Virus record (IMG/VR): IMGVR_UViG_3300023105_003457
Span: 1 to 64,000 of that record
Length of the DNA: 64,000 nucleotides
Direction: 5' to 3' (one strand)
DNA from: a virus
Lineage: Duplodnaviria > Caudoviricetes
Position 1 is the stretch's first letter; every line of letters starts with the position of its first letter. A program made the translations under genes and the position numbers. The notes beneath the pieces are model-generated. The model saw nothing but the letters and a program-made list of their open reading frames with translations, was not told the origin of the DNA and searched no databases. Below, in pieces: positions 1 to 20,829 of the stretch.

Positions 1-204
1 TTACGCTATTTCAAAAGGTTCACTCACCAATTTCTCTGTGGCAAGTTTAGCATCAATTTCTTCTTCAAGACTTTTGATACGCTTATTGAGTGCATTTACA
101 ATACTAACACGGGTAGCACCGTGTTCAATATTATCGTGCGTCATTTCGATACAGTGTTTTACTGCTTCCAGTTCTTCTAACAGTTCTTCTTTGTTGATTT
201 CCAC
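1..204 (-). CDS. hypothetical coiled-coil protein
   Basis: ORF with GTG start after GGAGG; sigma70-like TTGACA-N17-TATAAT on minus strand at ~239-267. Confidence 0.6.
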   Translation of the reverse strand: MEINKEELLEELEAVKHCIEMTHDNIEHGATRVSIVNALNKRIKSLEEEIDAKLATEKLVSEPFEIA

Positions 205-561
205 GTTGCCTCCTCGGCTTTGTTAACTTACACTTACTATTATACTAAAGTATTAGGAGATGTCAAGTCATTTTGGCAAAACGCATTGCCAACTTTAAGT
301 TGACACAGTTATGCAAAAATAGCAACACTGTCTTGCACAAAAAACAGTTGATTTATCTCAAAAAACATAGTATATTATAAAGTATTAATATAAATACAAA
401 TGTTGCAACGCAAGATGCAATATTCACATACAGACACTTGGATAGACAAGGGCGTAATCCACGCCTTACAAGCGATTGACGACTACCAAAGGTAGTTGCA
501 CCGCCGGGGAAGTTCCGGGGTATTGCTTTCCTCAAGCATCCATACATCAAAGGAGAGAACA

Positions 562-5371: not shown

Positions 5372-5973
5372 TGGTTTAAACTATCCTTTGTATATATGTT
5401 ATCTTTATCTTGTATATCATACTGCGAGATGTGAGTAGGGTTTAGGGTATTAATATTATACTCTAAACCAAATATTGTGTATTTGTATCTTGGTTTTACA
5501 ATTGGCGCATTAAGTTCTGCAAACCATTTTCTAACCCATTCAACATTGTTATGCAAAAAATATATTTTTCTTAGATGATTTACATTATCTCCGTAGTAAA
5601 CTCCAACTCCACTTTTTAAAATATCAATTCTACTTCCAGGTGGCAAAGAAGGTAATGGATGTCTAGGTAAGTTTTGATCGTAAACTTTTAATACTCGTTG
5701 TTGTTTATCTAAGAAACATTCAACAGCATAATAGTCACAGAACACATGATAATTTTCAACAGCAAACTCTTGTTTTATTTCTTCACTAGGGTAAACATCA
5801 AATGTTAGATTAACTTTTTGTTTGTTGACATCATAACTAATCATCTGTAAGCCATCAAAGTTTGTATTAGGCCATACAGCCAATACCATTGCTTTGTATT
5901 CTAACGCCGCATTGCCGTTAGCATCTACAAATACTTCGTTTGCTCCGTCACTACTGTACTTTGTTTCAATCAT
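5368..5973 (-). CDS. hypothetical protein in radical SAM cluster
   Basis: 201-aa ORF overlapping both neighbours. Confidence 0.7.
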   Translation of the reverse strand: MIETKYSSDGANEVFVDANGNAALEYKAMVLAVWPNTNFDGLQMISYDVNKQKVNLTFDVYPSEEIKQEFAVENYHVFCDYYAVECFLDKQQRVLKVYDQNLPRHPLPSLPPGSRIDILKSGVGVYYGDNVNHLRKIYFLHNNVEWVRKWFAELNAPIVKPRYKYTIFGLEYNINTLNPTHISQYDIQDKDNIYTKDSLNQ

Positions 5974-6379
5974 CTAACATCATTTCCTTACGGTAGTAAT
6001 TGTAAACATCAGGCACCATACCTTTCATAGGTATTGGCCAATCAATTATATCAAATAGATAATCATATACCTCTGGACTTTCGTCATAGGTTTTATAATA
6101 TGGATCGTTTCCAGCAAGTAGCATAGGGTCTCTTAAAAGTTTCCAAAAGTCCTCGTCAAAGTCTTGGCTAATCCAATACGCATAACAATATGCTACTACA
6201 TAACTTTTGCTTGGATATATCCATTCATCTACGTATTCAAAAAAGTGTCGAGCGGCATCTTCTTTGACTGCTGTAGACATTTTTATATCAACTTGATTAA
6301 GATCATCAGAGTGTTGAGTATTCAAACGATGGTATACTTCTTGTCTAACTTTCCAGTCCTGCATCGTATCGTTCTCCAT
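5966..6379 (-). CDS. hypothetical protein in radical SAM cluster
   Basis: 137-aa acidic/aromatic ORF coupled to radical SAM gene. Confidence 0.7.
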   Translation of the reverse strand: MENDTMQDWKVRQEVYHRLNTQHSDDLNQVDIKMSTAVKEDAARHFFEYVDEWIYPSKSYVVAYCYAYWISQDFDEDFWKLLRDPMLLAGNDPYYKTYDESPEVYDYLFDIIDWPIPMKGMVPDVYNYYRKEMMLDD

Positions 6380-7274
6380 AGTAATCTAACAATCCTTTAT
6401 AACCATTACAACCGTTATCTAAGTTTTTAACATATCGATAGTGTTCTGTTAAACAGATACCGTAGTAATCGCACTTCTTACAGATATCAGAACAATTTTT
6501 TTCTGGTTCTTGTTCTGCCCACTGCTTATACTCTTTATAAGAATCTAATTCTAAAAAGTATTCTTTATCGTGTTTATCAAATTCTAATACTCCAAACTTT
6601 CCATTTGGCGTAATGTACACATGGTCGTTTGAAAATGCGTTTCGTAGACCAACTAAACTTTCATTTATGTGTTGCTTATTAATAAATTTAAAGTTCTTTT
6701 TTATAGGACTTTCTAACCATTTGATAACAAACTGTTCAAAGTCTTTGTGCGTGACATTATGTGCATTTGCTTGATTAATACTGTAAGGTTTAATTTCTAC
6801 ACTTTCAATTGAACTGCATAGGTTTAACTGTTGTATCATACTATCCACATTCATATCAAGTACTTTAGGACTTGCAAGAATTAAAACAGCAATAGGCACA
6901 GGACTTTGTAGCATATTATAAAATACTTTGTCGTATTTTTCTCTTGCTTCAAAATCATAACTTACACTTAGATAAAAGTCTTTTTCAAAAAATCCATCGT
7001 GAAGCATAGAAAAGTTTGTATTAATGTTTATTGTTCCGCGATAATGTTTTTGTATTACATCACGCATCTCATAAAAATATTCTTTTTTAAGAGCACCAAC
7101 TTCGCCGCCATACAAATCAATATGATCTATTGTATCTTCCATTCTTATTTCCATTAACATATCGTCTAGTCTTTTAAGATCTATTTTATTTTGATCTGCT
7201 AGTTGCTCTTGTGTGAGATAACAAAAGTCACATCTAAAATTACAAAAGTATGTAGGGTTAATGGAAACGTTCAT
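6345..7274 (-). CDS. radical SAM enzyme with C-terminal Cys cluster
   Basis: CNFRCDFC, YGGE, C-terminal CxxCxxxxxC...C. Confidence 0.9.
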   Translation of the reverse strand: MNVSINPTYFCNFRCDFCYLTQEQLADQNKIDLKRLDDMLMEIRMEDTIDHIDLYGGEVGALKKEYFYEMRDVIQKHYRGTININTNFSMLHDGFFEKDFYLSVSYDFEAREKYDKVFYNMLQSPVPIAVLILASPKVLDMNVDSMIQQLNLCSSIESVEIKPYSINQANAHNVTHKDFEQFVIKWLESPIKKNFKFINKQHINESLVGLRNAFSNDHVYITPNGKFGVLEFDKHDKEYFLELDSYKEYKQWAEQEPEKNCSDICKKCDYYGICLTEHYRYVKNLDNGCNGYKGLLDYYGERYDAGLES

Positions 7275-7818
7275 CCGGAAACTCCATTATAATTTTGTTC
7301 AATAATAATTTTTTACTAAATCTAGAAAATAGCAAACGTGTTAGTAGACTACTATTTTTAAATAAACCAATGTAAAGATATTCGTAGTGATTATAGTTTT
7401 TTAAAAATAACTTATTCATATATTCTACTTCTGCTTTTTTATCTTCTAACTCTAATACTTTACGCAATGATTGATTTGTATTGTTAACTTTCTTTCTAGT
7501 TTCAAAATATAAACCAGGTATATGTTGTATACGATGAACAATGTTATGCATCCTAATATCAATATCGTTTCCGCCAAGTGCTAACATAACATACCAATTC
7601 ATATTTTGCTTGTCGTAATAGTGTCCTTCACAACTGCTAATAGGCAAGTATCCTTTGTCTAATAAGGCTTTTATATGAGGTCTAACACCAGGCTCTAATT
7701 CGTCAAAGAATTCTTTATCATAAGGACTTACTGTCAGTGCAACATAGCCTGTTTCGTAAACATCATTAGCATTTTTTGAAGCGTGTATTCTTCCGTTATC
7801 AAAAACTTTATTCTTCAA
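7258..7818 (-). CDS. hypothetical protein with SSCEGH motif
   Basis: ELEPGV...L..KGY.PISSCEGH; coupled in cluster. Confidence 0.65.
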   Translation of the reverse strand: MKNKVFDNGRIHASKNANDVYETGYVALTVSPYDKEFFDELEPGVRPHIKALLDKGYLPISSCEGHYYDKQNMNWYVMLALGGNDIDIRMHNIVHRIQHIPGLYFETRKKVNNTNQSLRKVLELEDKKAEVEYMNKLFLKNYNHYEYLYIGLFKNSSLLTRLLFSRFSKKLLLNKIIMEFPDERFH

Positions 7819-8497
7819 TGTCGTACTCCTTTATCTTGTTGTTTTCCCAAACAGACTTATATCCGCAACTTACAATTACACTGTGACGTAGAGTGTTTGT
7901 TGTATTAACTCTGTGAACAAAACAAGGATTGTAATTGTTTAATACTATTAACTTATTTGTTTCTATTTTTATTTTACCCGTTGTTTCAACATTGCCTTCA
8001 ATATGATTTAGACCTTTTGCTGGTTGCCAATGCGGAAAACTATCAGTATCATTAACTTGAATTTGACTTACCTTTCCTACTTCAAATTCGCCACTATCCT
8101 GTGTTTCCATATAGAATAATAACTGTATTAGTGTTCCGTCAAAACCATCCCAATGCCACACCATATCAGTGCCTGCATTCATTCGATTCACACTTACTTT
8201 AAAGTTATCAAAGGTTCCGTATATTTCATTCCAGTATTTGAAGTACGGCTCTGCTAGAACTTGTTTTATGATATCAACATACTTCTGTTGATTAGCGTAG
8301 AAGTTATCATCTAGATCTAAATAATCTCGATCCCATAAAGGATTTTCAATACCAGGATATGTGCCTTTTCCATATTGTTCAGTAAGAACAAAGCCTGCTA
8401 AATGATTTGTTATTGTATCATCTACGTATAAAGTATCAAATCCTTTTTCAAAGAATGACTGTAGGTTAGGAGAAGTTTTACTTAGATTCATTTTCAT
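7808..8497 (-). CDS. 2OG-Fe(II) oxygenase
   Basis: WHWDG (HxD), FVHRV (distal His), R of RxS; paralog of 9560..10216. Confidence 0.8.
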   Translation of the reverse strand: MKMNLSKTSPNLQSFFEKGFDTLYVDDTITNHLAGFVLTEQYGKGTYPGIENPLWDRDYLDLDDNFYANQQKYVDIIKQVLAEPYFKYWNEIYGTFDNFKVSVNRMNAGTDMVWHWDGFDGTLIQLLFYMETQDSGEFEVGKVSQIQVNDTDSFPHWQPAKGLNHIEGNVETTGKIKIETNKLIVLNNYNPCFVHRVNTTNTLRHSVIVSCGYKSVWENNKIKEYDIEE

Positions 8498-9569
8498 ACG
8501 GAGTGACTTCTACTCCCTCCAACCCGTTTGCTTTTAATATCTTAGGAGCAATCTGTTTCATCAAACGACAATGTGCTTCTACTACATTATGTTGTTTAAA
8601 GTCTTTAACTGTTTTTCTACAACCATTACATATATCAAACATAGGACAAGTATAACATGATTTTTTCATACTTGCAAGTTCAAAACTATCCTGAAGCGGT
8701 GTAAAAAATTCTCCGTTCATTTCACGTTCAAAGTTAATTGGCTTGTCCATATCATCTCCAAACGCACCACAACTGTAATAGTCGCCACCTGGATTCATAG
8801 CACGTATGCCTTCGTCACACTTTCTATTCTGTGGACAACTTGTAGCATTGCCTTTTAGTCTTTGCATCATTTGTTTGGTGTTGAACTCCCATGGAGCAAG
8901 TCCTGCTTCCCATATATCAATATAGGTTTTATACATTTTAGATAGTAAGTAAGGACGATCTTGTTCGCCACTACTCATTGCATAGTTAAGTTTACACTCA
9001 ACGCCTGTCTTATCCTGTCTATCAAAATTATGTAATGTTCCGCCAGGCTCAAGTCCTTCACTCATTTCCATAGCAAGTTCTACATTTTTAATTGCTAGAT
9101 GATCGTTAGTATCTGTGACTACACTAATAAAGTCCGGACGATAACCACAGTGTTCTAACATAGCATCTGATACTTTCCAAAAGTCCTCTACTGTGAATAA
9201 ACTGTAATCACCTTTAAGTCTTCCGTCACCGTAGTTAAAACTTGTTGTAATTCCTACACGTTCATTGTTAAAAAGGTCACGCCATTTTGTAGGCTTTACA
9301 TAAAATGGCCACAAATTTGTAGTAAGAGCAATACTAGTTTTGTAATTATTACTATCTAACCAATCTATTATACGCCAATAGTAATCTGGTTCCATCATTA
9401 ACGGATCACCACCATTAACAATTATTGTGTTTGTATTAGGATATCTTTTTAAAAACTTAAAAATGTGTTCATGATCTAATACAACTTTTCCATGCTCTGC
9501 AATTTTTGTGCTTGAACAAAACGTACATTTAAAATTACAAAGTTCAGTTGGTTTAATAATTAGTTCCAT
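8478..9569 (-). CDS. radical SAM/SPASM-domain enzyme
   Basis: IKPTELCNFKCTFC, GGDP; C-terminal C...YSC...CYTCPMFDICNGC...C. Confidence 0.9.
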   Translation of the reverse strand: MELIIKPTELCNFKCTFCSSTKIAEHGKVVLDHEHIFKFLKRYPNTNTIIVNGGDPLMMEPDYYWRIIDWLDSNNYKTSIALTTNLWPFYVKPTKWRDLFNNERVGITTSFNYGDGRLKGDYSLFTVEDFWKVSDAMLEHCGYRPDFISVVTDTNDHLAIKNVELAMEMSEGLEPGGTLHNFDRQDKTGVECKLNYAMSSGEQDRPYLLSKMYKTYIDIWEAGLAPWEFNTKQMMQRLKGNATSCPQNRKCDEGIRAMNPGGDYYSCGAFGDDMDKPINFEREMNGEFFTPLQDSFELASMKKSCYTCPMFDICNGCRKTVKDFKQHNVVEAHCRLMKQIAPKILKANGLEGVEVTPYENESK

Positions 9570-10216
9570 AAACTTATACCTGCATTAATTGTATATCTAT
9601 TTTTAGTTTTATCTTTTAATGTATCTACACTATGAACAAATCTAGGATTAGCATTGTTTAGTAATACAACAGTTCCGTTTAACGGAATAATATTTTTTAC
9701 ATTAGACACTTCTTCGTTAGGCCAATCACGTTCTCCAATTTTAAGAATACTTCCCCATTCTGTTTTCCATTCAGGCTCTTCAGTAAAATAAATTAAAAAC
9801 CCTACGTCATGATCTTCAACTCCGTCCCAATGCCAGTTTAAACTATCACTACCATTCCAGAGATCTATAAACCTAAGTTCCCAATTATATCCACACGTTT
9901 TTTCAAACCAATTGCTATAATAAGGATCTTTAAATAATTGTGTAATTGCATCAGTATACATCTTAGGAACAACATCTAAACTAGAAGCACTTTTGGCTTT
10001 TTCATATTCTCTATTGTATTCTCTTTCTTCCTTAGGTGGTGTTGTAATATCTGTGTTTATGCTCCATTCAGGTATGCTTTTGTATACCGAATGTGTTTGC
10101 CAATTTTCCATAGATATTTGTGCCCACAACAATGTTGTTAGATGTTGCGGAAGTTGAACAACATCAAACCCGTGTTTGTAAAAATGGTTAACGTCAAACG
10201 TCTTTTGAATCAACAT
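9560..10216 (-). CDS. 2OG-Fe(II) oxygenase
   Basis: WHWDG, LIYF, EWGS, FVHSV, NRYT. Confidence 0.8.
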   Translation of the reverse strand: MLIQKTFDVNHFYKHGFDVVQLPQHLTTLLWAQISMENWQTHSVYKSIPEWSINTDITTPPKEEREYNREYEKAKSASSLDVVPKMYTDAITQLFKDPYYSNWFEKTCGYNWELRFIDLWNGSDSLNWHWDGVEDHDVGFLIYFTEEPEWKTEWGSILKIGERDWPNEEVSNVKNIIPLNGTVVLLNNANPRFVHSVDTLKDKTKNRYTINAGISLWN

Positions 10217-11195
10217 AATCGTATACCTCCGCTAACCAACAAGGCTCTTGTGTTCTAAAACTTTTTAAATGATTACTTAAGAAACAACCCATAGAGCAAC
10301 GTTGAAAATGTGGACATTCTAAACAGTTATAATCTTCAAACCATTTCTGTTCCATTTCTTCCTTAGTTGGCCTATATCCATCTAGGTCTTTAGATAATAA
10401 TACTGTACAACCTCCTGCATCACCACTGGGCATAATAGTAAACGTATCCATACAAGTCATGCGTTTCTTTTGCTTGTTAGGATAATCTTTGAAGGGTAAA
10501 CAGTTAGGATAGTTATCTAACATAAACTTCATAAAGTCACGCAACTGTACATCATTAGGAGTCATACGTTCTCTATTCTTTTCTGGTGTGTAGTAATCAA
10601 AATAGATATCATAGTTGTCGTACAAGTAATCAAAGAAAGGTGTAGCACGTTTTAAGAACTTTTCAATGTTAGGCTTTGTCATAATAACATTAGCACTTTT
10701 GATGTAGTTTTTAAACATTCTTACGTTCTCTTGAAACTTTTCTAACTGTCCAAAACCAAAGCGTCCACTAGGATCATAACTTGTTAGTAGTTTAATCTGT
10801 GGGCATTCATCTAGTAGTTTTTGTAGTCTATCTGTGCGTTCGTAAACAAAGTTTGTGGTAAAACATATTTCAACATCATAGTTGTTTTCCTTGCTCCACT
10901 TATCTAATTCATCTGCTAGATATTTGTAGTCATCAAAGCAACTGTCAGGAACAAGATCACTAAACACTTCACCACCCATAAAGTGTACACTGAACATACC
11001 TCTAGTAGCACTCATATTTTTTATAGCACGTTGCACAACTTCTAGTTTATCTCGTATGGTATCCATACCAACCTTGCTGTTGTGATCTTGATTGCAAAAC
11101 TTACAACTCATATTACACTGTTCAAACAAGGTCACAATGATCTCGCCTAAGATTTGTCTTTTGTTTGTTTTTGTAATAATATTATGTTCTATCAT
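10194..11195 (-). CDS. radical SAM/SPASM-like enzyme
   Basis: CNMSCKFC, MGGE; C-terminal CLECPHFQRCSMGC...C. Confidence 0.9.
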   Translation of the reverse strand: MIEHNIITKTNKRQILGEIIVTLFEQCNMSCKFCNQDHNSKVGMDTIRDKLEVVQRAIKNMSATRGMFSVHFMGGEVFSDLVPDSCFDDYKYLADELDKWSKENNYDVEICFTTNFVYERTDRLQKLLDECPQIKLLTSYDPSGRFGFGQLEKFQENVRMFKNYIKSANVIMTKPNIEKFLKRATPFFDYLYDNYDIYFDYYTPEKNRERMTPNDVQLRDFMKFMLDNYPNCLPFKDYPNKQKKRMTCMDTFTIMPSGDAGGCTVLLSKDLDGYRPTKEEMEQKWFEDYNCLECPHFQRCSMGCFLSNHLKSFRTQEPCWLAEVYDYVDSKDV

Positions 11196-11746
11196 TCAAC
11201 TATCTCATTAAAAGTCATATTGCATACAAGACTTATTCTTTGTTCACTACCTAAGTAAGGAGTGACTTCATGCCAAACATAATACGGTGCCGCAATTAAT
11301 AAACCATCTGTTGGTTCAATTTCTATGTATGGTTTACCTGGCGCAAATGATTTTTTACTTTGCCATCTAGGATCATATAATCTTATTTTGCCGCCTTCAC
11401 TATTTCCTGCATTAATATAAAATACTGCAAACGCATCAATAACATCATGTGAATGTACGCTTTTAAAATCACCAAACTTCATTGGATTGATGATGTTTAG
11501 GTCATCCATATTATAATTTGTGTTGTGACCTGCGTGTTCACAAAGAGTGTCAAATGCGATTTTAAATCGTGAACGTATGTCCGGAAATGCATTAAAGTTT
11601 ACATTTTCGTCTGCTATGTTAACAATGCCACTAGCCTTCATATCTGTTATTTTGGCAATGGCTAGGGTTTCAACTTGCTTTTTCCAATCTTCGTCATCAT
11701 TATACTGACAAGAATAGATTGGCGTAGACCAATATTCATTTATCAT
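11192..11746 (-). CDS. putative 2OG-Fe(II) oxygenase (TIGR02466-like)
   Basis: HSH, VFYI, G.I.LYDPR, WHEV.P, RISL. Confidence 0.75.
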   Translation of the reverse strand: MINEYWSTPIYSCQYNDDEDWKKQVETLAIAKITDMKASGIVNIADENVNFNAFPDIRSRFKIAFDTLCEHAGHNTNYNMDDLNIINPMKFGDFKSVHSHDVIDAFAVFYINAGNSEGGKIRLYDPRWQSKKSFAPGKPYIEIEPTDGLLIAAPYYVWHEVTPYLGSEQRISLVCNMTFNEIVE

Positions 11747-11777: not shown

Positions 11778-12860
11778 TTAACCTATTGAAAAGTTAGATA
11801 ATGTTGCTGAGTTTTCTTTTTTAAGTTTATAAAAGAAGTTTAACAATAGTACATTTACTTTTAATCTATCTTCAATTTCAAATGCACTTAGAGCACTATT
11901 GATATCTTTATCAAGAACTGTATCAATTTCACTGCTTGTTAATGTTCCATTTGAATTTTGGACAATCTTAATTACTTCTTTAGACAGTGTTGAATCGTCA
12001 TCACCTGCATCAGTTCCTGAAGCCTCAAACATCTTTTGTCTAAAGTCTGCAACATCAATTTTAATGCTGTCAATTGTTTGATCTTTTAAGATAAAATCTA
12101 ATGTATCATTGGTTCCTTCAAGTGCAAATAAGTCTTGGTCAATTGTATAATCAACACCTACTAGTTTTGAAACCCATGTCTTATTGATGTTTTGAAGCAA
12201 ACTGCTTCTAATAAACAATGCTTCGTCCATTACTTTTTTGCTAAGAATAGCATACATCTTTTTACCTAATGAATCATCGTATGTACTTTTGCCATTAAGT
12301 TTGCCAGCAATCAAAAACTCAATTGGTGCTTTTGCTCTTACTTTTCCAGTTAATGAATTGTTTACTTCTACTGAAACTGTTTTAAATAATCCTTGAAACT
12401 GATCTTTAGTCATGTATCCAAAAGATTCTGCTAGTGTTTTTTGACTATCAACTCCAGCATTGTCTGAACCCCATGTAAAGTCTTGTCTTGTGATTAACTT
12501 TGCTTCTGTTGTGTTTGCATTATAGATTTTAAATGCATCTTCTTTTGTAATGTTAGGGTATAGATATTTTACCCATTTGACAAATAGTGTATTGTATGTT
12601 GTTGCATCTGCAAAAATATCAACAGTGCCTTTTTCTAATAGGAAATCAAAAAACTCTGCGTCGTTTGCAAACTCTTTATCAGCACCAACTAGTTCGTTGT
12701 ATGAGTTAACATTGTAATATGTTTCCCCTAACGATCTAAATCTTGTTTGTATTTCGTCGCCAATTTGTTGTGTTAAATTTGGTGAAATAACGATACGTGG
12801 ACGCTCCATATCCATACGGAACTCTGGCTTTACATACACTTTATCAAATAGTAGAAACAT
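11778..12860 (-). CDS. hypothetical protein in radical SAM cluster
   Basis: 360-aa ORF coupled to neighbour. Confidence 0.75.
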   Translation of the reverse strand: MFLLFDKVYVKPEFRMDMERPRIVISPNLTQQIGDEIQTRFRSLGETYYNVNSYNELVGADKEFANDAEFFDFLLEKGTVDIFADATTYNTLFVKWVKYLYPNITKEDAFKIYNANTTEAKLITRQDFTWGSDNAGVDSQKTLAESFGYMTKDQFQGLFKTVSVEVNNSLTGKVRAKAPIEFLIAGKLNGKSTYDDSLGKKMYAILSKKVMDEALFIRSSLLQNINKTWVSKLVGVDYTIDQDLFALEGTNDTLDFILKDQTIDSIKIDVADFRQKMFEASGTDAGDDDSTLSKEVIKIVQNSNGTLTSSEIDTVLDKDINSALSAFEIEDRLKVNVLLLNFFYKLKKENSATLSNFSIG

Positions 12861-13581
12861 CTTTTAAACTCTCTTCTTTTAACTCTTTGTATTTATTTGA
12901 ATCCCACATTCCTGAAGCCACTGCATTAGTGATAAGTGCTACTGTATTTCCAGGAACAAACCAGTAATTAAATAACGGTTCGCCTTTAAACATAGGATCG
13001 TTAAATTGCTTTACTAAAAACTTTCTATCTGTTAACGGTACGTGAGGAAACAATTCATATACATCTGAATACTTGTATAAATGTACGTAGTTAATTCCGC
13101 AGAATGTATCGTCTTCTACACGATCAAACCCATCAATACTTTGTTGAATAGCATTGTCTTGAATACAGTGCAAATTAAAAATACTACCACTAGCAAGAGC
13201 AACTGTCCATTTATCAACTAGGTCTGCGTTTTCTTCAATAAAATCTTTTGCTTCATTAAAAGAAAATAACTTGTTAACATAGTGTAAGCCTTGGTTTTCT
13301 TTTATACCTGCTAATAGTATTTGAAGTACTGTTAGTTCTAATGATTTTAGTTTTACTAACATTCTTGTTTCCATGTAAACTTTTACAAATTCATTTACTT
13401 CAGAAAACTCTACATCTTTAAAACTAACATCACACGGAACATCTAAATTACTTAGATATGTAAGTAATTTTTCTCCTTTAAGTGTGCTATCTTTATAATC
13501 AATAATAAAAGTAATATCTTTATTTTCAAAGTATTCTTTTAAATTATCAATAGGAATAGGAGCAACTGTATGTTTGTTCAT
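12844..13581 (-). CDS. hypothetical protein in radical SAM cluster
   Basis: 245-aa ORF; TAATG overlap with the Cys/His-tail gene. Confidence 0.75.
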   Translation of the reverse strand: MNKHTVAPIPIDNLKEYFENKDITFIIDYKDSTLKGEKLLTYLSNLDVPCDVSFKDVEFSEVNEFVKVYMETRMLVKLKSLELTVLQILLAGIKENQGLHYVNKLFSFNEAKDFIEENADLVDKWTVALASGSIFNLHCIQDNAIQQSIDGFDRVEDDTFCGINYVHLYKYSDVYELFPHVPLTDRKFLVKQFNDPMFKGEPLFNYWFVPGNTVALITNAVASGMWDSNKYKELKEESLKDVSTI

Positions 13582-14138
13582 TAGCGTCTACCTCTTGAAC
13601 CGTGACAGTTAGAGTGGCAACTACTGTGACATACTGTGACTGGTGTGTCTACAACAATATCACGTTTTTCGTTCATTTCTCGTTGAAGATCCCCTAAGTA
13701 TGCTTCGATACCAGCAACACTTACTAAATCGTCGGGCTCTACTGCACTAGCATCAATACCGTCAAGTGCAACTCTGTTAGCATCTAATAGATGAGCAACT
13801 TGTGTTTGATCAAAATCAACACGAGGATTTGCTTCACCTGTGCCAGATGTTTGCATTAGCAGTCTTGCTCTTTGTTTTCTAATTCTAGTGTATTCAAATG
13901 CTTCGCCTTCAAGTGTTGCAATAAGTTCTGAAGAATCAATTGTTGATCCTGCAATAGATGTTCCTGTAATACCAATTGAACGACCAGCAGTAGTGCCGCC
14001 ATAGTTTCCAGCCGGCATATCATTGAACGGTTTATTGTTTGTTGCCCATAGGATTTGACCATTGTTATGAGTCACAACAAAATCTTCAAATCTATCAACA
14101 ATATTTTGTTTTCTAATAGGGTTTGTTAGCGTAGCCAT
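13581..14138 (-). CDS. protein with C-terminal CHSSCHSNCHGSRGRR tail; candidate modification substrate
   Basis: all 3 Cys lie in the last 16 residues at 4-residue spacing; starts 1 nt after a radical SAM stop codon. Confidence 0.75.
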   Translation of the reverse strand: MATLTNPIRKQNIVDRFEDFVVTHNNGQILWATNNKPFNDMPAGNYGGTTAGRSIGITGTSIAGSTIDSSELIATLEGEAFEYTRIRKQRARLLMQTSGTGEANPRVDFDQTQVAHLLDANRVALDGIDASAVEPDDLVSVAGIEAYLGDLQREMNEKRDIVVDTPVTVCHSSCHSNCHGSRGRR

Positions 14139-15209
14139 CTAGTTATGTACCTTTATTAATTTCTCTGTAAATTTCGCATTTGTACGTATATTTATGTTTT
14201 CTTTTAGTTTCATCATGAGGGTTTTTGGAGACGCACACACATCTCCTTCCCATTCTAATTGGTGACAATCGCTACCGCATACGTCAAATACCGGGCATTC
14301 AAAGCATCTAGGGTCTCTTGCTGTTTCACAGGCTATAATATTGCGTCTTTTTGGGTTAAAAAGCAGTTCAGCAATAGGCATATCTAGGTGTCCATAATGA
14401 TCTACAGGTGCTGAATTTGGGCATCCTGCGATGGTTCCGTCTGCATTAATTGTAAACATCTTTTGCTCACAGTTTCTACACCAAGTACCTGCATCAGGAA
14501 ATCCTAGTTCAAATTTAGCATAGATGTTTTCCATAAACGTATGATAAATTTTGTCACGCAAATCGTGTTCAACAATAGCCTCGTGATAAGCAAGGAACCA
14601 ACTGTCTAGTTCTTTGTTGCTAGGCCATAATGCTAGATTCTTTTTAGCATTACCATCAAAGGTAATACGTTCAAAGTCTATTTCTTGTATTCCTAAATCA
14701 ATAGCATAATCAATAATATGTACAGGATCTAATTCAATTACATCACGACTCATACTTACAAATAATTTAATTGTAAATCCGTCTTTGATAAGAGTGCGGA
14801 CATTTGACTCCCATAGTTTACGTTGTTGCTCGTTTGCAAAACGTATTTTAGGATCCCAACTTGTACCAACACGTTTACCTAATGCTGTACGCATAAAATT
14901 TAGTTTTTCGTCTGTGAGTTTGTAAACAAGATTAGTAGTTGTTCCCCAACTCATTTCAGGATATAGTTTTGAAACAGCATCATACACTTTTTGCATATCA
15001 GCAACAGGTGCAAGAAAAGGTTCACCACCATGAAAATCTACATGGGCAGTTCTAAACTCAGGAAACATTTCTTTTAGTCTTGTAAACCAATCAATAATTT
15101 TATTAGGATCAAAATAAATCTTACGACCGTTGATACCATTTGTAAAACAATGACTGCAATTTAGATTACAAGTTTCTGTTGTTTTAAGATATACCATTAA
15201 ATCTCTCAT
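14139..15209 (-). CDS. radical SAM/SPASM-domain enzyme
   Basis: KTTETCNLNCSHC, FHGGEP; CRNC...TINADG.IAGCPN...CFECPVFDVCGSDC...C. Confidence 0.92.
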   Translation of the reverse strand: MRDLMVYLKTTETCNLNCSHCFTNGINGRKIYFDPNKIIDWFTRLKEMFPEFRTAHVDFHGGEPFLAPVADMQKVYDAVSKLYPEMSWGTTTNLVYKLTDEKLNFMRTALGKRVGTSWDPKIRFANEQQRKLWESNVRTLIKDGFTIKLFVSMSRDVIELDPVHIIDYAIDLGIQEIDFERITFDGNAKKNLALWPSNKELDSWFLAYHEAIVEHDLRDKIYHTFMENIYAKFELGFPDAGTWCRNCEQKMFTINADGTIAGCPNSAPVDHYGHLDMPIAELLFNPKRRNIIACETARDPRCFECPVFDVCGSDCHQLEWEGDVCASPKTLMMKLKENINIRTNAKFTEKLIKVHN

Positions 15210-15721
15210 AGATGTATTCCTATATCTCCAACAGACTTTTCTAAGTAATTGTAAGTTCCAAAACTTAAACTTAAACAGTTTGTAATATTAAATGCTTTGT
15301 GCTGAGTATTTGCTTTAATAAAAATATGTTCGTTTTCTTTTAGTGTATGATCAGTGTCTGCAACTGTGACTGTTTTTGTTCCTTCGCAGATATAAATGCA
15401 AACCTCACACGGGTCACTATGCATATCAAAACTACCATGATCTTCATACCCCCAATAAGCATGACAGTCAACAGGCTTTCCCCAATGTTTAGAAAGTTGA
15501 TTACATTTATCATAGATAACTTTATTAAATGCTTCAAAGCCTTGTATTTTAAATGTAGTTTTGTTTGTAATAAGTGTTGGCAATGATTCTATATACTCGG
15601 AGAAAGACACATAGGTATCATTAACTGGAGTATCTTTCCCGTCAATAATAGTGTAGATCAATCCTTGTGTAAAGAAATCTAAATTTGATAATGCTTGTTC
15701 AAAGTTTTGTTTTGTGATCAT
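15206..15721 (-). CDS. JmjC/cupin-type oxygenase
   Basis: CHAY...SFDMHSD...EGTK...QHKA...SLSFG. Confidence 0.7.
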   Translation of the reverse strand: MITKQNFEQALSNLDFFTQGLIYTIIDGKDTPVNDTYVSFSEYIESLPTLITNKTTFKIQGFEAFNKVIYDKCNQLSKHWGKPVDCHAYWGYEDHGSFDMHSDPCEVCIYICEGTKTVTVADTDHTLKENEHIFIKANTQHKAFNITNCLSLSFGTYNYLEKSVGDIGIHL

Positions 15722-16377
15722 AATCCACTTGTGTTATTGCTAACAACTTTATCACCAATTACAATAGGGGAGCCCGGTGATACTCCGTGGATGTTAAAAC
15801 TAAACACAATTCTTTCTTTGTTAGTAGGATTAGCCGGAACTCTATGAGGCAACCAGCCTGGAAATATCAATGCATCACCTGTTTCACACTTAACTTCTGT
15901 ATAGTAATCATTAATGCCTCCTGGTTGTTCAAACTTAGGAGCATTAGAATTTAGTGGTAAGTTCATATTTCTAAACTGTATATCACCACTGTCCTCGGGT
16001 TTTTCTAAATACATACTTACAGCAAAGTGACTACCACCGTGATCGTGTTCTTCTACATAGCCTTGGTTAGCAGTAATGTTAGTCCAACTTTTAAAAATGC
16101 TTAATTCAATATCAGGTTGATACTGCCACTGCTTCCAAATCTCTTTAACATAAGGACGCAACCAATCAAGTATTGGTTTCATCTCAGACCAACTATGAGG
16201 TGCGGTTGCTTGATTAAGAACACTAGTCTTGCCACCACCTTTCATAACACCAATGTTAGGTTGCACCATTAAATGTTCTGCTCGTACTTTTCTTACAACA
16301 TCTGTAAGGTCGCCTGGATAATGCATTTTATATATCAACGGTGCCCATGGTGTAGCATTTATCAATCCATCAATCAT
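15718..16377 (-). CDS. putative 2OG-Fe(II) oxygenase (TIGR02466-like); start reassigned
   Basis: SWTN, EHDH, SGDIQF, FPGWLPHRV, RIVFSFN. Confidence 0.8.
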   Translation of the reverse strand: MIDGLINATPWAPLIYKMHYPGDLTDVVRKVRAEHLMVQPNIGVMKGGGKTSVLNQATAPHSWSEMKPILDWLRPYVKEIWKQWQYQPDIELSIFKSWTNITANQGYVEEHDHGGSHFAVSMYLEKPEDSGDIQFRNMNLPLNSNAPKFEQPGGINDYYTEVKCETGDALIFPGWLPHRVPANPTNKERIVFSFNIHGVSPGSPIVIGDKVVSNNTSGL

Positions 16378-17050
16378 TATTGGCTCCTGGCATATAATCG
16401 TGTGCGTAAGGTTCAACACTACCTGCGGCTTCAATACTATTAGGGTCTAACTGTTCTCTTACTTTAAAGTTTCCACTAAATGTTGTACGTCTTTTATTTG
16501 ATTTATTAGGGTTTGTAAAGTGATAAGTCCAACTAGGAAATATTACAATAGTTCCTGATTTTACTTTAGGAATATAACATTTTGTATTAAACTGTTTGAA
16601 TACTCTATCAACACCTGTTGCCGCAACTCTATTAAACTCTGTATTCTCTAATACAAGTTCGCCGCCAGTTTCAACATCATCTGGGTATTCAAAGAAATAA
16701 GAACAAGCAAACATTCTATCAGGTACACTATGATCGTGTATCTCTTGGAATCCACCGTTATTGTATATGTTGGCCCAACATTCAATTAGTTCAAATGTGT
16801 ATGGGCGTGTTGGACCAAGTGAATCAAAGTATTCAGTAAAGTTTGGTTGTATAGCGTCCCACCATATTTTCCAAGGCATTTGGTCGTTCTTTTCGTGACC
16901 ACAACTGCTTGTACATCTTGATAGTGTCCAAGTATCTTTAAAATACTCTTTCTCTTTCAAAATGTAAGGCATAAATGCTTCAACAACTTTATCGTGATCT
17001 TTTACTTCACCTACGTAAAAGTGTGTTGGCCAAGCAGGGATAGTACTCAT
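16370..17050 (-). CDS. putative 2OG-Fe(II) oxygenase (TIGR02466-like)
   Basis: WANIY..GGFQEIHDH, FPSW..H, R.T.SGN. Confidence 0.8.
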   Translation of the reverse strand: MSTIPAWPTHFYVGEVKDHDKVVEAFMPYILKEKEYFKDTWTLSRCTSSCGHEKNDQMPWKIWWDAIQPNFTEYFDSLGPTRPYTFELIECWANIYNNGGFQEIHDHSVPDRMFACSYFFEYPDDVETGGELVLENTEFNRVAATGVDRVFKQFNTKCYIPKVKSGTIVIFPSWTYHFTNPNKSNKRRTTFSGNFKVREQLDPNSIEAAGSVEPYAHDYMPGANND

Positions 17051-17688
17051 GAATTCTCCTTTACTTTGTAAACACAGTTTACAATAATTCTTTTGCTATA
17101 ATCTATAGGAGGACTGCTAGTATGATATCTTGTACTGTGAAACATTACTAGTCTACCACGTTTAGGTGATAGTGTTGTTTCTGTACGCATATCAGTTAAA
17201 TCTTCTCCCCAAAATTTGTTAAAGAAGTAAGTGTCTCCATCTGCATCGTCAACATAGTAGATTACACTAATCCACGGTTCGTCATCTTTGCCTTCTAGAT
17301 GTTTATCACAATGTGGCATATTATACCAACCACGTTGCCAATTTGCTTGTTTGTGTAGATAGTTAACTTTAATTCTGTCTACGGCTTCAATTTCCATTTC
17401 AAGGTTATTCATTAGACTGTTGCTAATAATATCTGAAACATACGTAAATGGTGAAAAGACCGGACCTCTGCTGTCAACTAAAGGATGGACAAACTGATTG
17501 CAATCGTGAATATTGTCTTTAATTATTTCAGATGTTTTTTCTAATTGCCCTGCTGTGACTTTATTGTAGGCCCAATTAAAGTTTGGATCTAAAACAGCAT
17601 CTAATATTTTTTGCTGATCATCTGGATGTACACAATTATCATACATTATAAATGGATGATTTTTCTTTTCAACTACTTCAACTTGCAT
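17047..17688 (-). CDS. 2OG-Fe(II) oxygenase
   Basis: PHCD, IYYV.DADGDT.FF, PKRGR..F....YHTSS.P, RI..N. Confidence 0.8.
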   Translation of the reverse strand: MQVEVVEKKNHPFIMYDNCVHPDDQQKILDAVLDPNFNWAYNKVTAGQLEKTSEIIKDNIHDCNQFVHPLVDSRGPVFSPFTYVSDIISNSLMNNLEMEIEAVDRIKVNYLHKQANWQRGWYNMPHCDKHLEGKDDEPWISVIYYVDDADGDTYFFNKFWGEDLTDMRTETTLSPKRGRLVMFHSTRYHTSSPPIDYSKRIIVNCVYKVKENS

Positions 17689-17690
17689 TC

Positions 17691-19268
17691 TTACTCCTTA
17701 TATACAGTGCTATTTAAGTAGTCATACATTGTTTGACAATGCTTTACGGCTTTACTCCATGTTTCTTTATTTGAATCCAAACGTCTAATAATTTCTTCTA
17801 GTTGTCTATTTGATAGTTTATTATGTGCAGGTTCAATACCTTCTGTGACAATATCAACAGGATTGTATCCCATACCACTAGCAATTGGAGGAAATCCAAA
17901 TCCTGTAAGATTTTTAAGAACTAATCTATCAAAAGCATAACTCTTTCCTGATACAGTTAATGGTTGTGTTTCATCTAGCATATTTGGATCATAAGATCTT
18001 TTATAGCAGTCTTTCCAATATTGTGTATCATTCCTCTGTGTCATTGCATAATGCATTGATACAAAATTAGCGAAGTCTTTAAACATCTTTTTGCATACTG
18101 CATTATATCCGTCAATATCAAATTGACTTGCTACTTGCTTACCATTTGTTCCATAACTTCTAAGAAGTGTTCTTGCAAGTTCAATTAAAAACTTATGAAC
18201 TGTATATAATCCGTTTGACTCTAACGGTTCAATGAACCCTGCACTTAGTCCTATTGCTACAACATTTTTAACCCAAAGTCTCTCGTGTAAGCCTACACGC
18301 ATTCTTAAATCTTTAAATTCTAATTCATTAACATCAACGTCATTAGCACTCAAATACATTTTAAATTCATTTAATGCCTGTTCAGGTGTTGCGTGATCAT
18401 CTGAATATACATATCCTGTACCAATTCTACTCCACAAAGGAATATTCCACACCCAACCATTACCTAATGCTGTACAATTTGTAAACGGTTCCATTTGTGC
18501 TTTTTTATCTGTGTATGGAACTCGTGTTGCCCATGCTCTATTATTAGGCAACATATATCTATAACTATCAAATGGCTCTTTCATTGTTTTGTCTAACAAC
18601 AAACTTTTGAACCCTGTACAATCAATGTATAGGTCGCCAGTAATTAACAAACTGTCATCAAGTTGTAAACCAAGCAAACCGTTTTTGTCATCACTTCTTA
18701 CTTCTTGTACATCACTTTGTATGTGTTCAACACCATTAGGAATACAAATATTATTCTTTAACCACTGTCCAAACTTAACAGCATCAAAATGATACGCACT
18801 ATCAACTCCGTAAGTATATCCTGGAAGTTTATTATCGGTATTTTTATCAAACTTGTTTTCGTTAACCAACGCCATTACACTATGAAAACTTTCTGCGTAA
18901 TTGCTGTTAGGTGTTTCAGGCTTATACATCTTTTTATAGTGCCAATCATTTGTTCCGTAGACTGTATTATCTAAATGCGGCCTTGTAAACGGATAATGGA
19001 ATCCACCGTCGTTTTGTTTATAGAAGTTATTAAACTTAATGCTCAATTTATATGTTGCATCAGTTTCTTTCATAAACTTCTTTTCATCAATCCCTAATAG
19101 ATTAATCCATTCATGAATGCCAGCAATAGTACTTTCGCCAACCCCTACAATCGGTGTGTTAGGTGATTCAATTAGTGTGACTTGGTATGTTGGAAATACT
19201 TTACAGATAGTTGCCGCAGTCATCCACCCGGCACTTCCTCCACCCACGATTACAATTTTCTTATGCAT
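17691..19268 (-). CDS. tryptophan halogenase-family flavin-dependent halogenase
   Basis: GGGSAG, GVGEST, ATYKLSIKF (catalytic Lys), GWVWNIP, FIEPLES. Confidence 0.9.
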   Translation of the reverse strand: MHKKIVIVGGGSAGWMTAATICKVFPTYQVTLIESPNTPIVGVGESTIAGIHEWINLLGIDEKKFMKETDATYKLSIKFNNFYKQNDGGFHYPFTRPHLDNTVYGTNDWHYKKMYKPETPNSNYAESFHSVMALVNENKFDKNTDNKLPGYTYGVDSAYHFDAVKFGQWLKNNICIPNGVEHIQSDVQEVRSDDKNGLLGLQLDDSLLITGDLYIDCTGFKSLLLDKTMKEPFDSYRYMLPNNRAWATRVPYTDKKAQMEPFTNCTALGNGWVWNIPLWSRIGTGYVYSDDHATPEQALNEFKMYLSANDVDVNELEFKDLRMRVGLHERLWVKNVVAIGLSAGFIEPLESNGLYTVHKFLIELARTLLRSYGTNGKQVASQFDIDGYNAVCKKMFKDFANFVSMHYAMTQRNDTQYWKDCYKRSYDPNMLDETQPLTVSGKSYAFDRLVLKNLTGFGFPPIASGMGYNPVDIVTEGIEPAHNKLSNRQLEEIIRRLDSNKETWSKAVKHCQTMYDYLNSTVYKE

Positions 19269-20829
19269 TGTCTCTGTATATTGTCCTTTTTAAATACTCA
19301 TAAAGAGTATTACAATTTGCTACTGCGTGTTTCCATTCTTCTTTTCTAGATTCTAAATGCTCTACAATATCATCTATTTCTTCTTCTGTTAAAGGATCTA
19401 TATCTAGTTTTTCTGTAATGCGATCAATTGGATTCCAATTCAAACCAACTGCAATACAATGCGGACCACCTGCAGGTTGAAACTCGTTGTTGCTCATTCT
19501 ATCCATTGCAAGATATCTCATACCCGAACTAACAGTAATGTGAGGATTGAGCAACTCCCAATCATAATCTTTGTTAACAAGGTCACGCCAATACTTTGTA
19601 TCATTCCTTGCTGAAAGAGCATAATGTAATATAACAAAGTGTGTAAACTCTGTAAACATTTTAGTAGTTCGTAAATTAAACACACCTTTATCAAACTCAG
19701 TTGCTACAATGTCTGTGTTTTCTTCGCGTTGTAGAATACGCATAAGTTCAATAAGATATTCGTGAACAGCAAACAATCCATTAGATTCTAAAGGTTCAAT
19801 AAACCCTGCACTTAGTCCAATTGCTACAACATTCTTTACCCACATCTTTTCATGTAGGCCTGTTTTCATTTTAATGTCTTTGTAGTTTAATGTTTCTGGA
19901 TCGTATCCTAGTTCTTTAAGATGTTCTTTAACTTCTTGTAGTGCTTCTTCTGGTGTTGCGTGTTTATCACTATAAACATAGCCTTTGCCAATCCTACTCC
20001 ATAGAGGCGTGTCCCATACCCAACCATTGCCTAATGCTGTACAAGTTGTATATGGACGCATTTGTTCTTCCTTGTTTAGATAAGGAACTTGAACTGCCCA
20101 CGCTCTGTTATTAGGTAAGTGTTCTTCATATGAATGAAACGGAACATCAAACTCGCTTAACAGTCTACTTCTAAATCCTGTACAATCTACAAACAAATCT
20201 GCTTCAACAAGACTATTGTTTTCTAATACTAGATGTTTAATACCGTTATTGTCTTTTACAATTTCTTTTACTTCTTGTTGTACGTGTTTCACTCCGTCAG
20301 GTAGACAGATGTTGTCACGCAACCAAATACCAAATTTAACAGCATCAAAATGATAGGCTGTATTTTTTCCGTAGCGATAACTTGGCAACCGTAAGTCTGT
20401 ATTCTTATCAAACTTGTTTTCATTTATGAGTGCCATTACACTAAAGAAACTATCTGCGTAATCACTTGTTGGAGATTTATCTCTATAGATTTGTTTGATG
20501 TGCCAGTCGTTAAGACCAAAACGTGTTCCGTTTAAATCAGGATCGCTAAAAGGATAATGAAAGCCATTGTCGCCTTTCTTATAAAAGTTTTCAAACTTAA
20601 TACTTAACTTGTAGGTTGCATCTGTATCACGCATAAAGTCTTTATCTTTAATACCAATAAGACGCATCCAAGTGTTAATAGATTGTAATGTACTTTCACC
20701 CACACCACTAATAGGAATGTTTGGTGATTCAATCAAGGTGATATCCCATGATGGGAAACATCTAATAAAGGTAGAGGCGGTCATCCATCCTGCGGAACCG
20801 CCTCCTACTATTACAACCTTTTTACTCAC
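19261..20829 (-). CDS. tryptophan halogenase-family flavin-dependent halogenase
   Basis: GGGSAG, GVGEST, ATYKLSIKF, GWVWDTP, FIEPLES; tandem paralog of 17691..19268. Confidence 0.9.
   Translation of the reverse strand: MSKKVVIVGGGSAGWMTASTFIRCFPSWDITLIESPNIPISGVGESTLQSINTWMRLIGIKDKDFMRDTDATYKLSIKFENFYKKGDNGFHYPFSDPDLNGTRFGLNDWHIKQIYRDKSPTSDYADSFFSVMALINENKFDKNTDLRLPSYRYGKNTAYHFDAVKFGIWLRDNICLPDGVKHVQQEVKEIVKDNNGIKHLVLENNSLVEADLFVDCTGFRSRLLSEFDVPFHSYEEHLPNNRAWAVQVPYLNKEEQMRPYTTCTALGNGWVWDTPLWSRIGKGYVYSDKHATPEEALQEVKEHLKELGYDPETLNYKDIKMKTGLHEKMWVKNVVAIGLSAGFIEPLESNGLFAVHEYLIELMRILQREENTDIVATEFDKGVFNLRTTKMFTEFTHFVILHYALSARNDTKYWRDLVNKDYDWELLNPHITVSSGMRYLAMDRMSNNEFQPAGGPHCIAVGLNWNPIDRITEKLDIDPLTEEEIDDIVEHLESRKEEWKHAVANCNTLYEYLKRTIYRDNA

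Follow-up and report, generated by a model that had tools for sequence, protein, structure and literature searches.

A conserved Cys-His tail on a phage protein as candidate substrate of jumbo-phage radical SAM enzymes

The subject of this report is a 64,000-nucleotide stretch of DNA (the window), positions 1 to 64,000 of the Caudoviricetes record IMGVR_UViG_3300023105_003457, and within it a gene for a 185-residue protein, tail185, which ends in three tandem Cys-His units and a basic block. With moderate confidence, tail185 is taken to be a virion-associated protein of large phages whose C-terminal tail is modified by radical S-adenosylmethionine (SAM) enzymes encoded beside it. An invariant, flexible motif, a fixed coupling to a radical SAM/SPASM enzyme with no leader-recognition domain and a likely presence in phage particles together point to the tail as the substrate of that enzyme, rSAM_A. 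Radical SAM modules of jumbo phages have gone unexplained, and the tail protein is the best candidate for their substrate.

The tail protein

The gene and its C-terminal core lie as follows.

13581..14138, minus strand: tail185 gene, ATG start, 185 aa, an alpha/beta domain (residues 1-169) and a C-terminal tail
13581..13631, minus strand: C-terminal core CHSSCHSNCHGSRGRR with the stop codon; R-x-R-R follows on three C-H-x-(S/N) units

The protein ends in VCHSSCHSNCHGSRGRR, the same C-terminus also being given as ...VTVCHSSCHSNCHGSRGRR. The tail comprises 16 residues (170-185) of the form (C-H-x-S/N)x3-R-x-R-R. An initial annotation of this DNA, made from the sequence alone, had placed a Cys-His repeat at the extreme C-terminus with every Cys of the protein inside it, and translation of the open reading frame (ORF) bears this out: tail185 has exactly three Cys, all in the tail, along with five His. 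At the level of DNA, three Cys-His pairs spaced at four codons occur once in the window (13602-13631, minus strand) and in 0 of 100 dinucleotide-preserving shuffles. The gene was also said to follow directly on the stop codon of a radical SAM/SPASM gene and to overlap the next gene, as the coordinates confirm. Its ATG (14138) starts at the base right after the rSAM_A stop codon (14139-14141), and its own stop codon shares one base with the ATG of the p245 ORF at 12844..13581 (TAATG). A scan for promoters and terminators around the gene gave nothing above shuffles.

In the AlphaFold2 model, built on a 128-sequence alignment, the protein forms three helices and a three-stranded sheet, with a mean predicted local distance difference test score (pLDDT) of 92.4 and a predicted template modelling score of 0.85. 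The pLDDT drops, to about 58, only at residues 171-185, where a short helix is modelled at 176-182. As modelled, residues 1-169 are a folded domain of no known family and not a leader. The description of this part as rich in Thr, Gly and Ala holds only mildly: Ala and Thr each reach 9.5%, and Asp and Gly each 8.3%.

Searches by sequence and by structure agree in placing the domain outside known families. Comparison of tail185 with Pfam and NCBIfam gave 0 families at E <= 0.01, and the match to phrog_35144 is confined to the tail. Foldseek comparison of the model with the Protein Data Bank (PDB) gave no match at E <= 0.001, and the best Z-score in an exhaustive VIA-align comparison with solved structures was 5.2, to a designed protein; therefore, no solved relative of the domain was found. 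ESM Atlas searches with the tail protein and p245 gave no usable match. Among predicted viral structures (BFVD), there are five matches to the model at E <= 0.001, all of them uncharacterised phage proteins, including a 296-residue protein of phage Atu_ph07 and two longer ones from a single uncultured myovirus. Loop insertions are seen in some homologues.

Conservation of the tail

A word-index search with tail185 returned 525 homologues at E <= 0.01 among 664 candidates, and an exhaustive search of cluster representatives (clusters at 50% identity) returned 253 at E <= 0.001, 109 of them at E <= 1e-10. The pattern CH..CH..CH..R.RR is found at the C-terminus of 250 of the 271 proteins collected. 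Four kinds make up the 21 without the full motif: fragments or proteins with broken ends, an RSL2 protein that is unrelated, variants in which a unit is altered or one residue is inserted ahead of the Arg block, and four proteins that stop after the third CHGS unit. In a later, larger set, all 252 tail-bearing proteins have exactly three CH units, and 201 of the 250 tail-bearing proteins of the first set have no Cys outside the tail.

The initial annotation had proposed that an alignment of homologues should show a conserved tail on a variable N-terminal domain, and this is what is seen. Mean pairwise column identity across 128 diverse sequences is 0.81 in residues 170-185 against 0.28 in residues 1-169. 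The only invariant columns in this alignment are C170, H171, C174, H175, C178, H179, R182, R184 and R185, with S173, S181 and R87 conserved at 90% or above.

The DNA encoding the tail was compared in 81 sequences (80 viral loci and the window), 63 of which are distinct. In these 63, Cys is encoded by both TGT and TGC, His by CAT and CAC, Arg by AGA, AGG and CGN, and the Ser positions by both AGY and TCN codons. The fourth position of units 1, 2 and 3 is Ser in 63, 53 and 58 of the 63 tails, respectively, while in the last unit the third position holds Gly in 37, Ser in 22, Ala in 2 and Asn in 2, and never Pro. As synonymous codons vary freely, selection acts on the peptide and not on the DNA. 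The tail is under purifying selection at the peptide level and is the most conserved part of the protein, and its motif defines an undescribed, phage-only protein family.

A search of 185,579 bacterial and archaeal species genomes uncovered only three loci, two of which are contigs of metagenome-assembled genomes that carry the phage module; the idea of a bacterial cluster for ribosomally synthesised peptides with post-translational modifications (RiPPs) was dropped on these grounds. The third, L085, is a 4.3-kb contig filed under a Dysosmobacter assembly. Its tail (3-362, plus strand) has 13 CH units in blocks ending NV(P)V and a terminal ARGRR, and is followed by p245, p360, rSAM_B and rSAM_C. 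Such a multiplication of units is how repeated modification motifs behave. At either end of the contig, the reading frame opens with residues resembling translated sequencing adapter, and the ends may be artefacts.

Departures from the usual architecture were also noted. In loci L069-L071, the tail protein is present as two consecutive ORFs (7070-7996 and 8016-8438), a 308-residue N-terminal piece and then a 140-residue piece bearing the tail, which suggests a frameshifted longer form or a split gene. In P0132, a homologue of 453 residues, a glycine-rich domain (PF21722, 7e-11) lies N-terminal to the tail-protein domain; no other fusion to a named domain looks genuine. Another homologue, P0256, carries a piece of a periplasmic binding protein and is maybe a chimeric assembly. 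Longer fused forms (325-2000 residues) were sought among 1294 candidates, none of which reached E <= 0.001; the evidence from this search is weak.

Coupling of the tail gene to a radical SAM module

In the window, the tail gene lies in a module of genes on the same strand.

15206..15721, minus strand: cupin-domain protein, 171 aa, first gene of the module (Cupin_2, 2.6e-07)
14139..15209, minus strand: rSAM_A, radical SAM/SPASM enzyme, 356 aa, candidate tail maturase (phrog_1802, 8.6e-62; Radical_SAM, Fer4_12 and SPASM matches)
12844..13581, minus strand: p245, conserved protein translationally coupled to the tail gene (phrog_20767, 6.2e-59)
11778..12860, minus strand: p360, module member in many phages (no family match in Pfam, PHROG and NCBIfam scans)
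10194..11195, minus strand: rSAM_B, second radical SAM paralogue (phrog_1802, 1.4e-35)
8478..9569, minus strand: rSAM_C, third radical SAM/SPASM paralogue (phrog_1802, 1.7e-57; SPASM match)
6345..7274, minus strand: rSAM_D, fourth radical SAM paralogue (phrog_1802, 2e-33)
5966..6379, minus strand: p137, small conserved protein closing the module (phrog_20737, 1e-36)

Gene order was compared in 80 viral loci, taken from 182 relatives among 337 pattern matches. The link between tail gene and radical SAM/SPASM gene on which the initial annotation drew proves near-universal, with rSAM_A as the immediate upstream neighbour of the tail gene in 77 of 80 loci; two of the three misses are loci cut at the tail gene, and the other has a radical SAM gene 2.2 kb upstream. 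p245 is directly downstream in 79 loci, the lone miss being a cut locus. Further downstream come rSAM_B (73/80), rSAM_C (66/80) and rSAM_D (59/80), and also p137 (37/80, within the flank available). By blastp, homologues of the divergent p360 were found downstream in 26 loci, and a cupin gene before rSAM_A in 56. Each of the 80 loci has one and only one ORF bearing the motif.

The same arrangement is present in cultured phages. A tblastn search of 50,697 phage records with tail185 gave no match, while rSAM_A and p245 each match the same 15 isolate records, and in 15 of 15 a tail-bearing protein is encoded directly after the radical SAM gene. These records are 11 RSL2-like phages, Atu_ph07 (two records), pPa_SNUABM_DT01 and Phosso. 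Ten of the RSL2-like records, from Ralstonia and Burkholderia phages, were counted by their 83-100% identity to ORF068 of RSL2, in which the end was read.

RSL2: ORF068, 186 aa, C-terminal end VCHSSCHTSCHGSRGRR
Atu_ph07 (two records): gp170, 296 aa, C-terminal end FCHSSCHASCHNSRSRR
pPa_SNUABM_DT01: PA10_00065, 178 aa, C-terminal end ICHTSCHTSCHSARGRR
Phosso: unnamed protein, 306 aa, C-terminal end YCHTSCHASCHSSRSRR

The N-terminal parts of the proteins from RSL2, Atu_ph07, pPa_SNUABM_DT01 and Phosso are too diverged for tblastn, whereas their tails are nearly identical. In RSL2, ORF069 adjoins the tail gene and has an N-terminus like that of p360, as judged by eye. A further gene stands directly before the radical SAM gene in RSL2, Atu_ph07 and pPa_SNUABM_DT01, and is annotated as a cupin only in the last. 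Hosts of the cultured phages with a tail protein are Agrobacterium, Sinorhizobium, Pseudomonas, Ralstonia and Burkholderia. RSL2 is recorded under the genus Chiangmaivirus and Atu_ph07 under Polybotosvirus; in the literature, the former is described as phiKZ-related and the latter as close to Rak2-like phages (PMC6102473). As isolates of different lineages carry the module, it moves or persists as a unit.

The radical SAM enzymes

Membership of the SPASM group was judged by a CX3CX2C motif together with a C-terminal SPASM pattern of seven or eight Cys, and rSAM_A has both. Its CX3CX2C motif lies at residues 14-21 (C14, C18 and C21 invariant in 37 sequences), and the eight Cys of its SPASM-type pattern (C244, C247, C263, C302, C305, C311, C315 and C325) are likewise invariant in the 37. 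Scores against the general models are just under the cut-offs, at 27.7 bits for Pfam Radical_SAM (cut-off 29.5) and 26.4 bits for TIGR04085 (cut-off 27). As the cluster motif begins at residue 14, there is no N-terminal leader-recognition domain, and the lack of an N-terminal extension fits an enzyme that acts on a protein. A complex prediction for rSAM_A and the tail protein, run without controls, gave scores of 0.01 and 0.01, the mark being 0.32, and speaks neither for nor against binding.

The four radical SAM proteins share 25-30% mutual identity, in their N-terminal cores only. A phmmer search of PDB sequences with rSAM_A gave only weak matches to the core (E 0.002-0.004). None of the four comes near any family cut-off, and therefore their chemistry cannot be read from homology.

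Probable association with phage particles, and expression

Evidence for the location of the tail protein comes from Atu_ph07, whose particles, purified with polyethylene glycol (PEG), were analysed by gel-based liquid chromatography-tandem mass spectrometry (Attai et al., PMC6102473). Gp170 appears in Table S5 of that report at 31.89 kDa with 8 unique peptides and 35.16% coverage, and the computed mass of the tail-bearing protein equals this listed 31.89 kDa exactly. Gel bands 1-9 all contained Gp170, with the highest abundance in band 1, where proteins of 127-139 kDa are also listed; in contrast, the peak for most other proteins of about 30 kDa lies in bands 7-8 (PMC6102473). The products of the neighbouring genes, Gp165-169, 171 and 172 (the radical SAM enzymes, p245 and the cupin), are absent from the Table S5 list (PMC6102473). 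These data lend some support to Gp170 being a particle-associated protein that forms high-mass species stable to sodium dodecyl sulfate. One suggestion of the initial annotation, a small virion protein with a putatively crosslinked or metal-binding tip, fits better than its alternative of a precursor, given the folded domain and the Atu_ph07 homologue in the virion proteome.

A weak hint that the tail gene is transcribed comes from metatranscriptomes. Six runs contain 34-82% of the sampled words of window positions 12800-15300, and contigs of 100% identity cover the tail gene in all four of the runs aligned. These contigs, from RNA libraries in which DNA may be present, show neither level nor strand.

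Run X11: contig 13476-14059
Run X12: contig 13473-14178
Run X14: contig 13518-14147
Run X15: contigs 13478-13860 and 13868-14161

In the four runs, contigs begin and end within about 100 nucleotides of the borders of the tail gene (window 13473-14178), and the neighbouring genes are patchily covered. This could reflect a discrete or more abundant transcript.

Comparison with known systems

The tail protein belongs to no described family, although it resembles known proteins matured by radical SAM enzymes in its logic. In function, the nearest parallel is the HXS defence system. Its HxsA is a whole protein carrying five H-x-S repeats that are rich in basic residues; two radical SAM enzymes and a small partner mature it, and it then blocks entry of phage DNA (PMC13128918). 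Both His and Ser are essential within the modified unit of HxsA (PMC13128918). The likeness lies in a whole protein with tandem His-x-Ser units near basic residues, and in maturation by more than one radical SAM enzyme (HxsB and HxsC, with the small HxsD), as is proposed for the phage module. The resemblance is one of motif and not of homology. tail185 matches no HxsA model; rSAM_B scores 15.6 bits against HxsB (cut-off 370) and rSAM_C 26.2 bits against HxsC (cut-off 267.9); and p137, p245 and p360, the proteins considered as HxsD-type partners, match no NCBIfam family. Moreover, the phage protein has an invariant Cys before every His, carries its units at the extreme C-terminus, and is phage-encoded and probably virion-associated, whereas HxsA, as described, is an effector of the bacterial periplasm and has a peptidoglycan-binding domain.

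Triceptide maturases provide a second comparison. HaaB, HtkB and YhhB link His-C2 to the C-beta of residue 3 on HAA, HTK and HNR motifs, and precursors with two to three Hxx motifs have been described (PMC11499958). In the phage tail, the three H-x-S/N units match the aromatic-X2-X3 form, the motif that such enzymes are reported to modify. Triceptide precursors, however, are short peptides and not folded proteins of 185 residues, and their motifs have no invariant Cys. The phage enzymes score 16-33 bits against the YhhB, XyeB, FxsB, GrrM/OscB and AmcB models (cut-offs 310-450); for rSAM_A, the values are 32.9 bits with YhhB (cut-off 445), 27.0 with FxsB (370) and 20.4 with XyeB (450), and against GrrM/OscB (310), rSAM_D reaches 26.7 bits and rSAM_C 19.3.

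Systems that form Cys thioethers share with the phage module a Cys at every fourth residue beside a radical SAM/SPASM enzyme, and there is a precedent for a whole-protein substrate in CrpA, on which CrpC makes thioether crosslinks (PMC13692751). The phage tail differs in lacking an Asp/Glu acceptor pattern and in having an invariant His beside each Cys, and the models for PapB (37.1 bits, cut-off 340) and the CXXX-repeat maturase TIGR04115 (34.8 bits, cut-off 350) are matched only at low scores. Sacti- and ranthipeptide systems are recognised by a short leader-core precursor and a leader-recognition domain; here the substrate would be a folded protein of 185 residues, and the motif of rSAM_A runs from residue 14.

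In sulfatases, the modified motif is C/S-x-P/A-x-R. Like the anaerobic sulfatase maturases, rSAM_A is a radical SAM/SPASM enzyme of about 360 residues without a leader-recognition domain and with a proposed whole-protein substrate, and the last phage unit, C-H-x-S-R, has the sulfatase Cys-to-Arg spacing. In contrast to the sulfatase motif, the third position of the phage unit is never Pro (Ala in 2 of 63), and there are three Cys and not one. Scores against TIGR03942 are 30.0 bits for rSAM_A and 44.4 bits for rSAM_C, compared with a cut-off of 349.45.

Proposed role of the tail and alternatives

It is proposed that a compact alpha/beta domain carries the flexible 16-residue tail on a structural, or at least virion-associated, protein, and that the tail is the substrate of rSAM_A encoded immediately upstream. 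The other three radical SAM paralogues, the cupin and the 2-oxoglutarate (2OG) oxygenases of the module would probably act on the tail too, so that a RiPP-like modification would be made on a whole protein. As to chemistry, thioether crosslinks from Cys, as in sacti- or ranthipeptides, are ranked first, three-residue cyclophanes joining His-C2 to Ser-C-beta on the three H-x-S units second, and conversion of Cys to formylglycine third. The mature tail may serve in the particle as a covalent staple or as a metal- or DNA-binding tip.

Several points weigh against modification of the tail by these enzymes. We infer the link between enzyme and substrate purely from gene order and the logic of the motif. 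Matches of the radical SAM proteins to characterised maturase families are far under the curated cut-offs and mostly confined to the N-terminal core. With four radical SAM enzymes, several oxygenases and the role-less p245, p360 and p137 in one block, the enzymes might act on those proteins or on a small molecule. Four of the 271 proteins end right after the third CHGS unit and so do without R-x-R-R, and three Cys with three His could bind metal without modification. As for the particles of Atu_ph07, these were only PEG-purified, and the protein list includes the non-structural ribonucleotide reductase, topoisomerase and terminase (PMC6102473). The loading buffer, as described, names no reductant (PMC6102473), and plain disulfides through the three Cys would thus explain the migration of Gp170 in high bands equally well.

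On the main rival reading, the end of a virion protein forms a Cys3His3 site that goes unmodified and binds metal (Zn, Fe, Cu or Ni) or is redox-active, with the radical SAM enzymes working elsewhere. It is regarded as rather unlikely. The invariant residues are classical metal ligands at i, i+4 and i+8, the helix modelled at 176-182 is consistent with such a site, if at a pLDDT of only about 58, and the gel behaviour of Gp170 could be accounted for by disulfides of free Cys where no reductant is described. The sequences of metal-binding tails usually vary among metallochaperones. Unlike these tails, that of tail185 also keeps Ser or Asn at the fourth position and its R-x-R-R end. Also difficult to accommodate are the near-universal coupling to rSAM_A across unrelated phage lineages and the retention of the same enzyme set beside the 13 CH units of L085.

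Alternatively, the tail protein might be no structural protein at all but a scaffold, carrier or building platform on which an Fe-S cluster or cofactor is assembled for the four radical SAM enzymes. A Cys/His-rich tail next to four Fe-S enzymes would suit this role, the Atu_ph07 "virion" list also has non-structural proteins, and marine phage genomes with many radical SAM genes have been reported to carry Fe-S assembly genes as well (PMC5332604). Nevertheless, the proposal is judged improbable: no Pfam or NCBIfam family, Fe-S scaffolds included, is matched by tail185, Gp170 was detected at 35% coverage but the enzymes that it would serve are all missing from the list, and one homologue is fused to a glycine-rich domain.

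Least probable is the unusually long RiPP precursor, one of the two readings offered in the initial annotation, with a 169-residue leader and a modified 16-residue core released as a peptide, which draws on the position of the core at the extreme C-terminus beside a radical SAM/SPASM gene, as in many RiPP clusters, but which is disfavoured by the confident fold of the N-terminal part (pLDDT 92.4) and its recurrence in distant phages including Atu_ph07 (BFVD), by the lack of room in rSAM_A for a leader-recognition domain, by peptides of the Atu_ph07 homologue in gel bands at or above full size, and by general family scans (14, 7, 35 and 11 ORFs) in which no peptidase or exporter family turned up among the block ORFs.

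The surrounding gene block and the source phage

The module forms part of a longer co-directional block. At its upstream end are two Trp-halogenase-like genes and three 2OG oxygenases; the module then starts with the cupin, rSAM_A, the tail protein, p245 and p360, continues with an oxygenase, rSAM_B, an oxygenase and rSAM_C, and ends with two unknown genes, rSAM_D and p137.

11192-11746 and 9560-10216, minus strand: two 2OG-Fe(II) oxygenase genes, each just upstream of a radical SAM gene (PF13759, PF13661)
15718..17688, minus strand: three more 2OG-Fe(II) oxygenase genes, upstream of the cupin, accessory (PF13759, PF13640)
17691-19268, 19261-20829 and 3528-4805, minus strand: three flavin-dependent Trp-halogenase-like genes flanking the module (Trp_halogenase, 5e-107; phrog_2928)

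The span of the first two oxygenase genes, 9560..11746, also takes in rSAM_B. Among related loci, the presence of the oxygenases near rSAM_B and rSAM_C is variable, and the three upstream oxygenases occur together only in the close relative L072 and not in most other loci. Halogenase homologues (blastp best matches) were found only in L072, L055, L058 and L074. The Trp-halogenase-like genes look like an accessory layer of the same block.

The AlphaFold2 model of p245 has a pLDDT of 89.2; it has no Foldseek match, and its best structure alignment, at a Z-score of 4.6, covers 54 residues only. p360 contains zero Cys and zero His in 360 residues, as does its closest relative, from L001. More distant homologues have 0-2 Cys and 5-11 His, and a meaning for this composition was rejected as improbable.

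The source record is 116 kb long with a CheckV completeness of 32%, which implies a genome of roughly 350 kb. It encodes a DnaB-type helicase, a primase, a ligase and endonuclease V. The helicase most resembles those of Atu_ph07 (53.8%) and PA5oct (52.4%), and therefore, to judge from its genes, the source of the window is probably a jumbo phage. The record is classed as a "provirus" by its source, yet its gene content, with replication genes and endolysin-like genes, is that of a lytic jumbo phage. No integrase family was found among 35 large ORFs scanned against PHROGs.

Significance

The presence of eight radical SAM genes in a structural gene cluster of a jumbo phage has been called "highly unusual" (PMC12390700), and other papers on jumbo phages list cupin and radical SAM genes without assigning a function. 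No description of the tail motif, or of a substrate for phage radical SAM modules, was found in the literature searched, although subscription journals and supplements may hold more. A concrete candidate substrate can now be named, namely one protein per genome with an invariant 16-residue motif, encoded beside the first radical SAM gene. Thus, the question of what the phage radical SAM enzymes do becomes a simple experiment of co-expression and mass spectrometry.

If the tail is modified, RiPP-type radical chemistry would be extended to a virion protein, and a new type of crosslink, with adjacent Cys and His, may be added to those known. A bolder proposal, considered speculative and rather doubtful, is that a dedicated jumbo-phage pathway of three to eight radical SAM/SPASM paralogues with cupin and 2OG oxygenases would build a new Cys/His-derived C-terminal crosslink on a virion protein, which would act at assembly or DNA delivery. 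On the same proposal, the bacterial HxS-repeat effector, a block to DNA entry, may have its phage-side counterpart in the tail structure. Were such a pathway to exist, the tail protein would be the first virion component matured by radical SAM enzymes.

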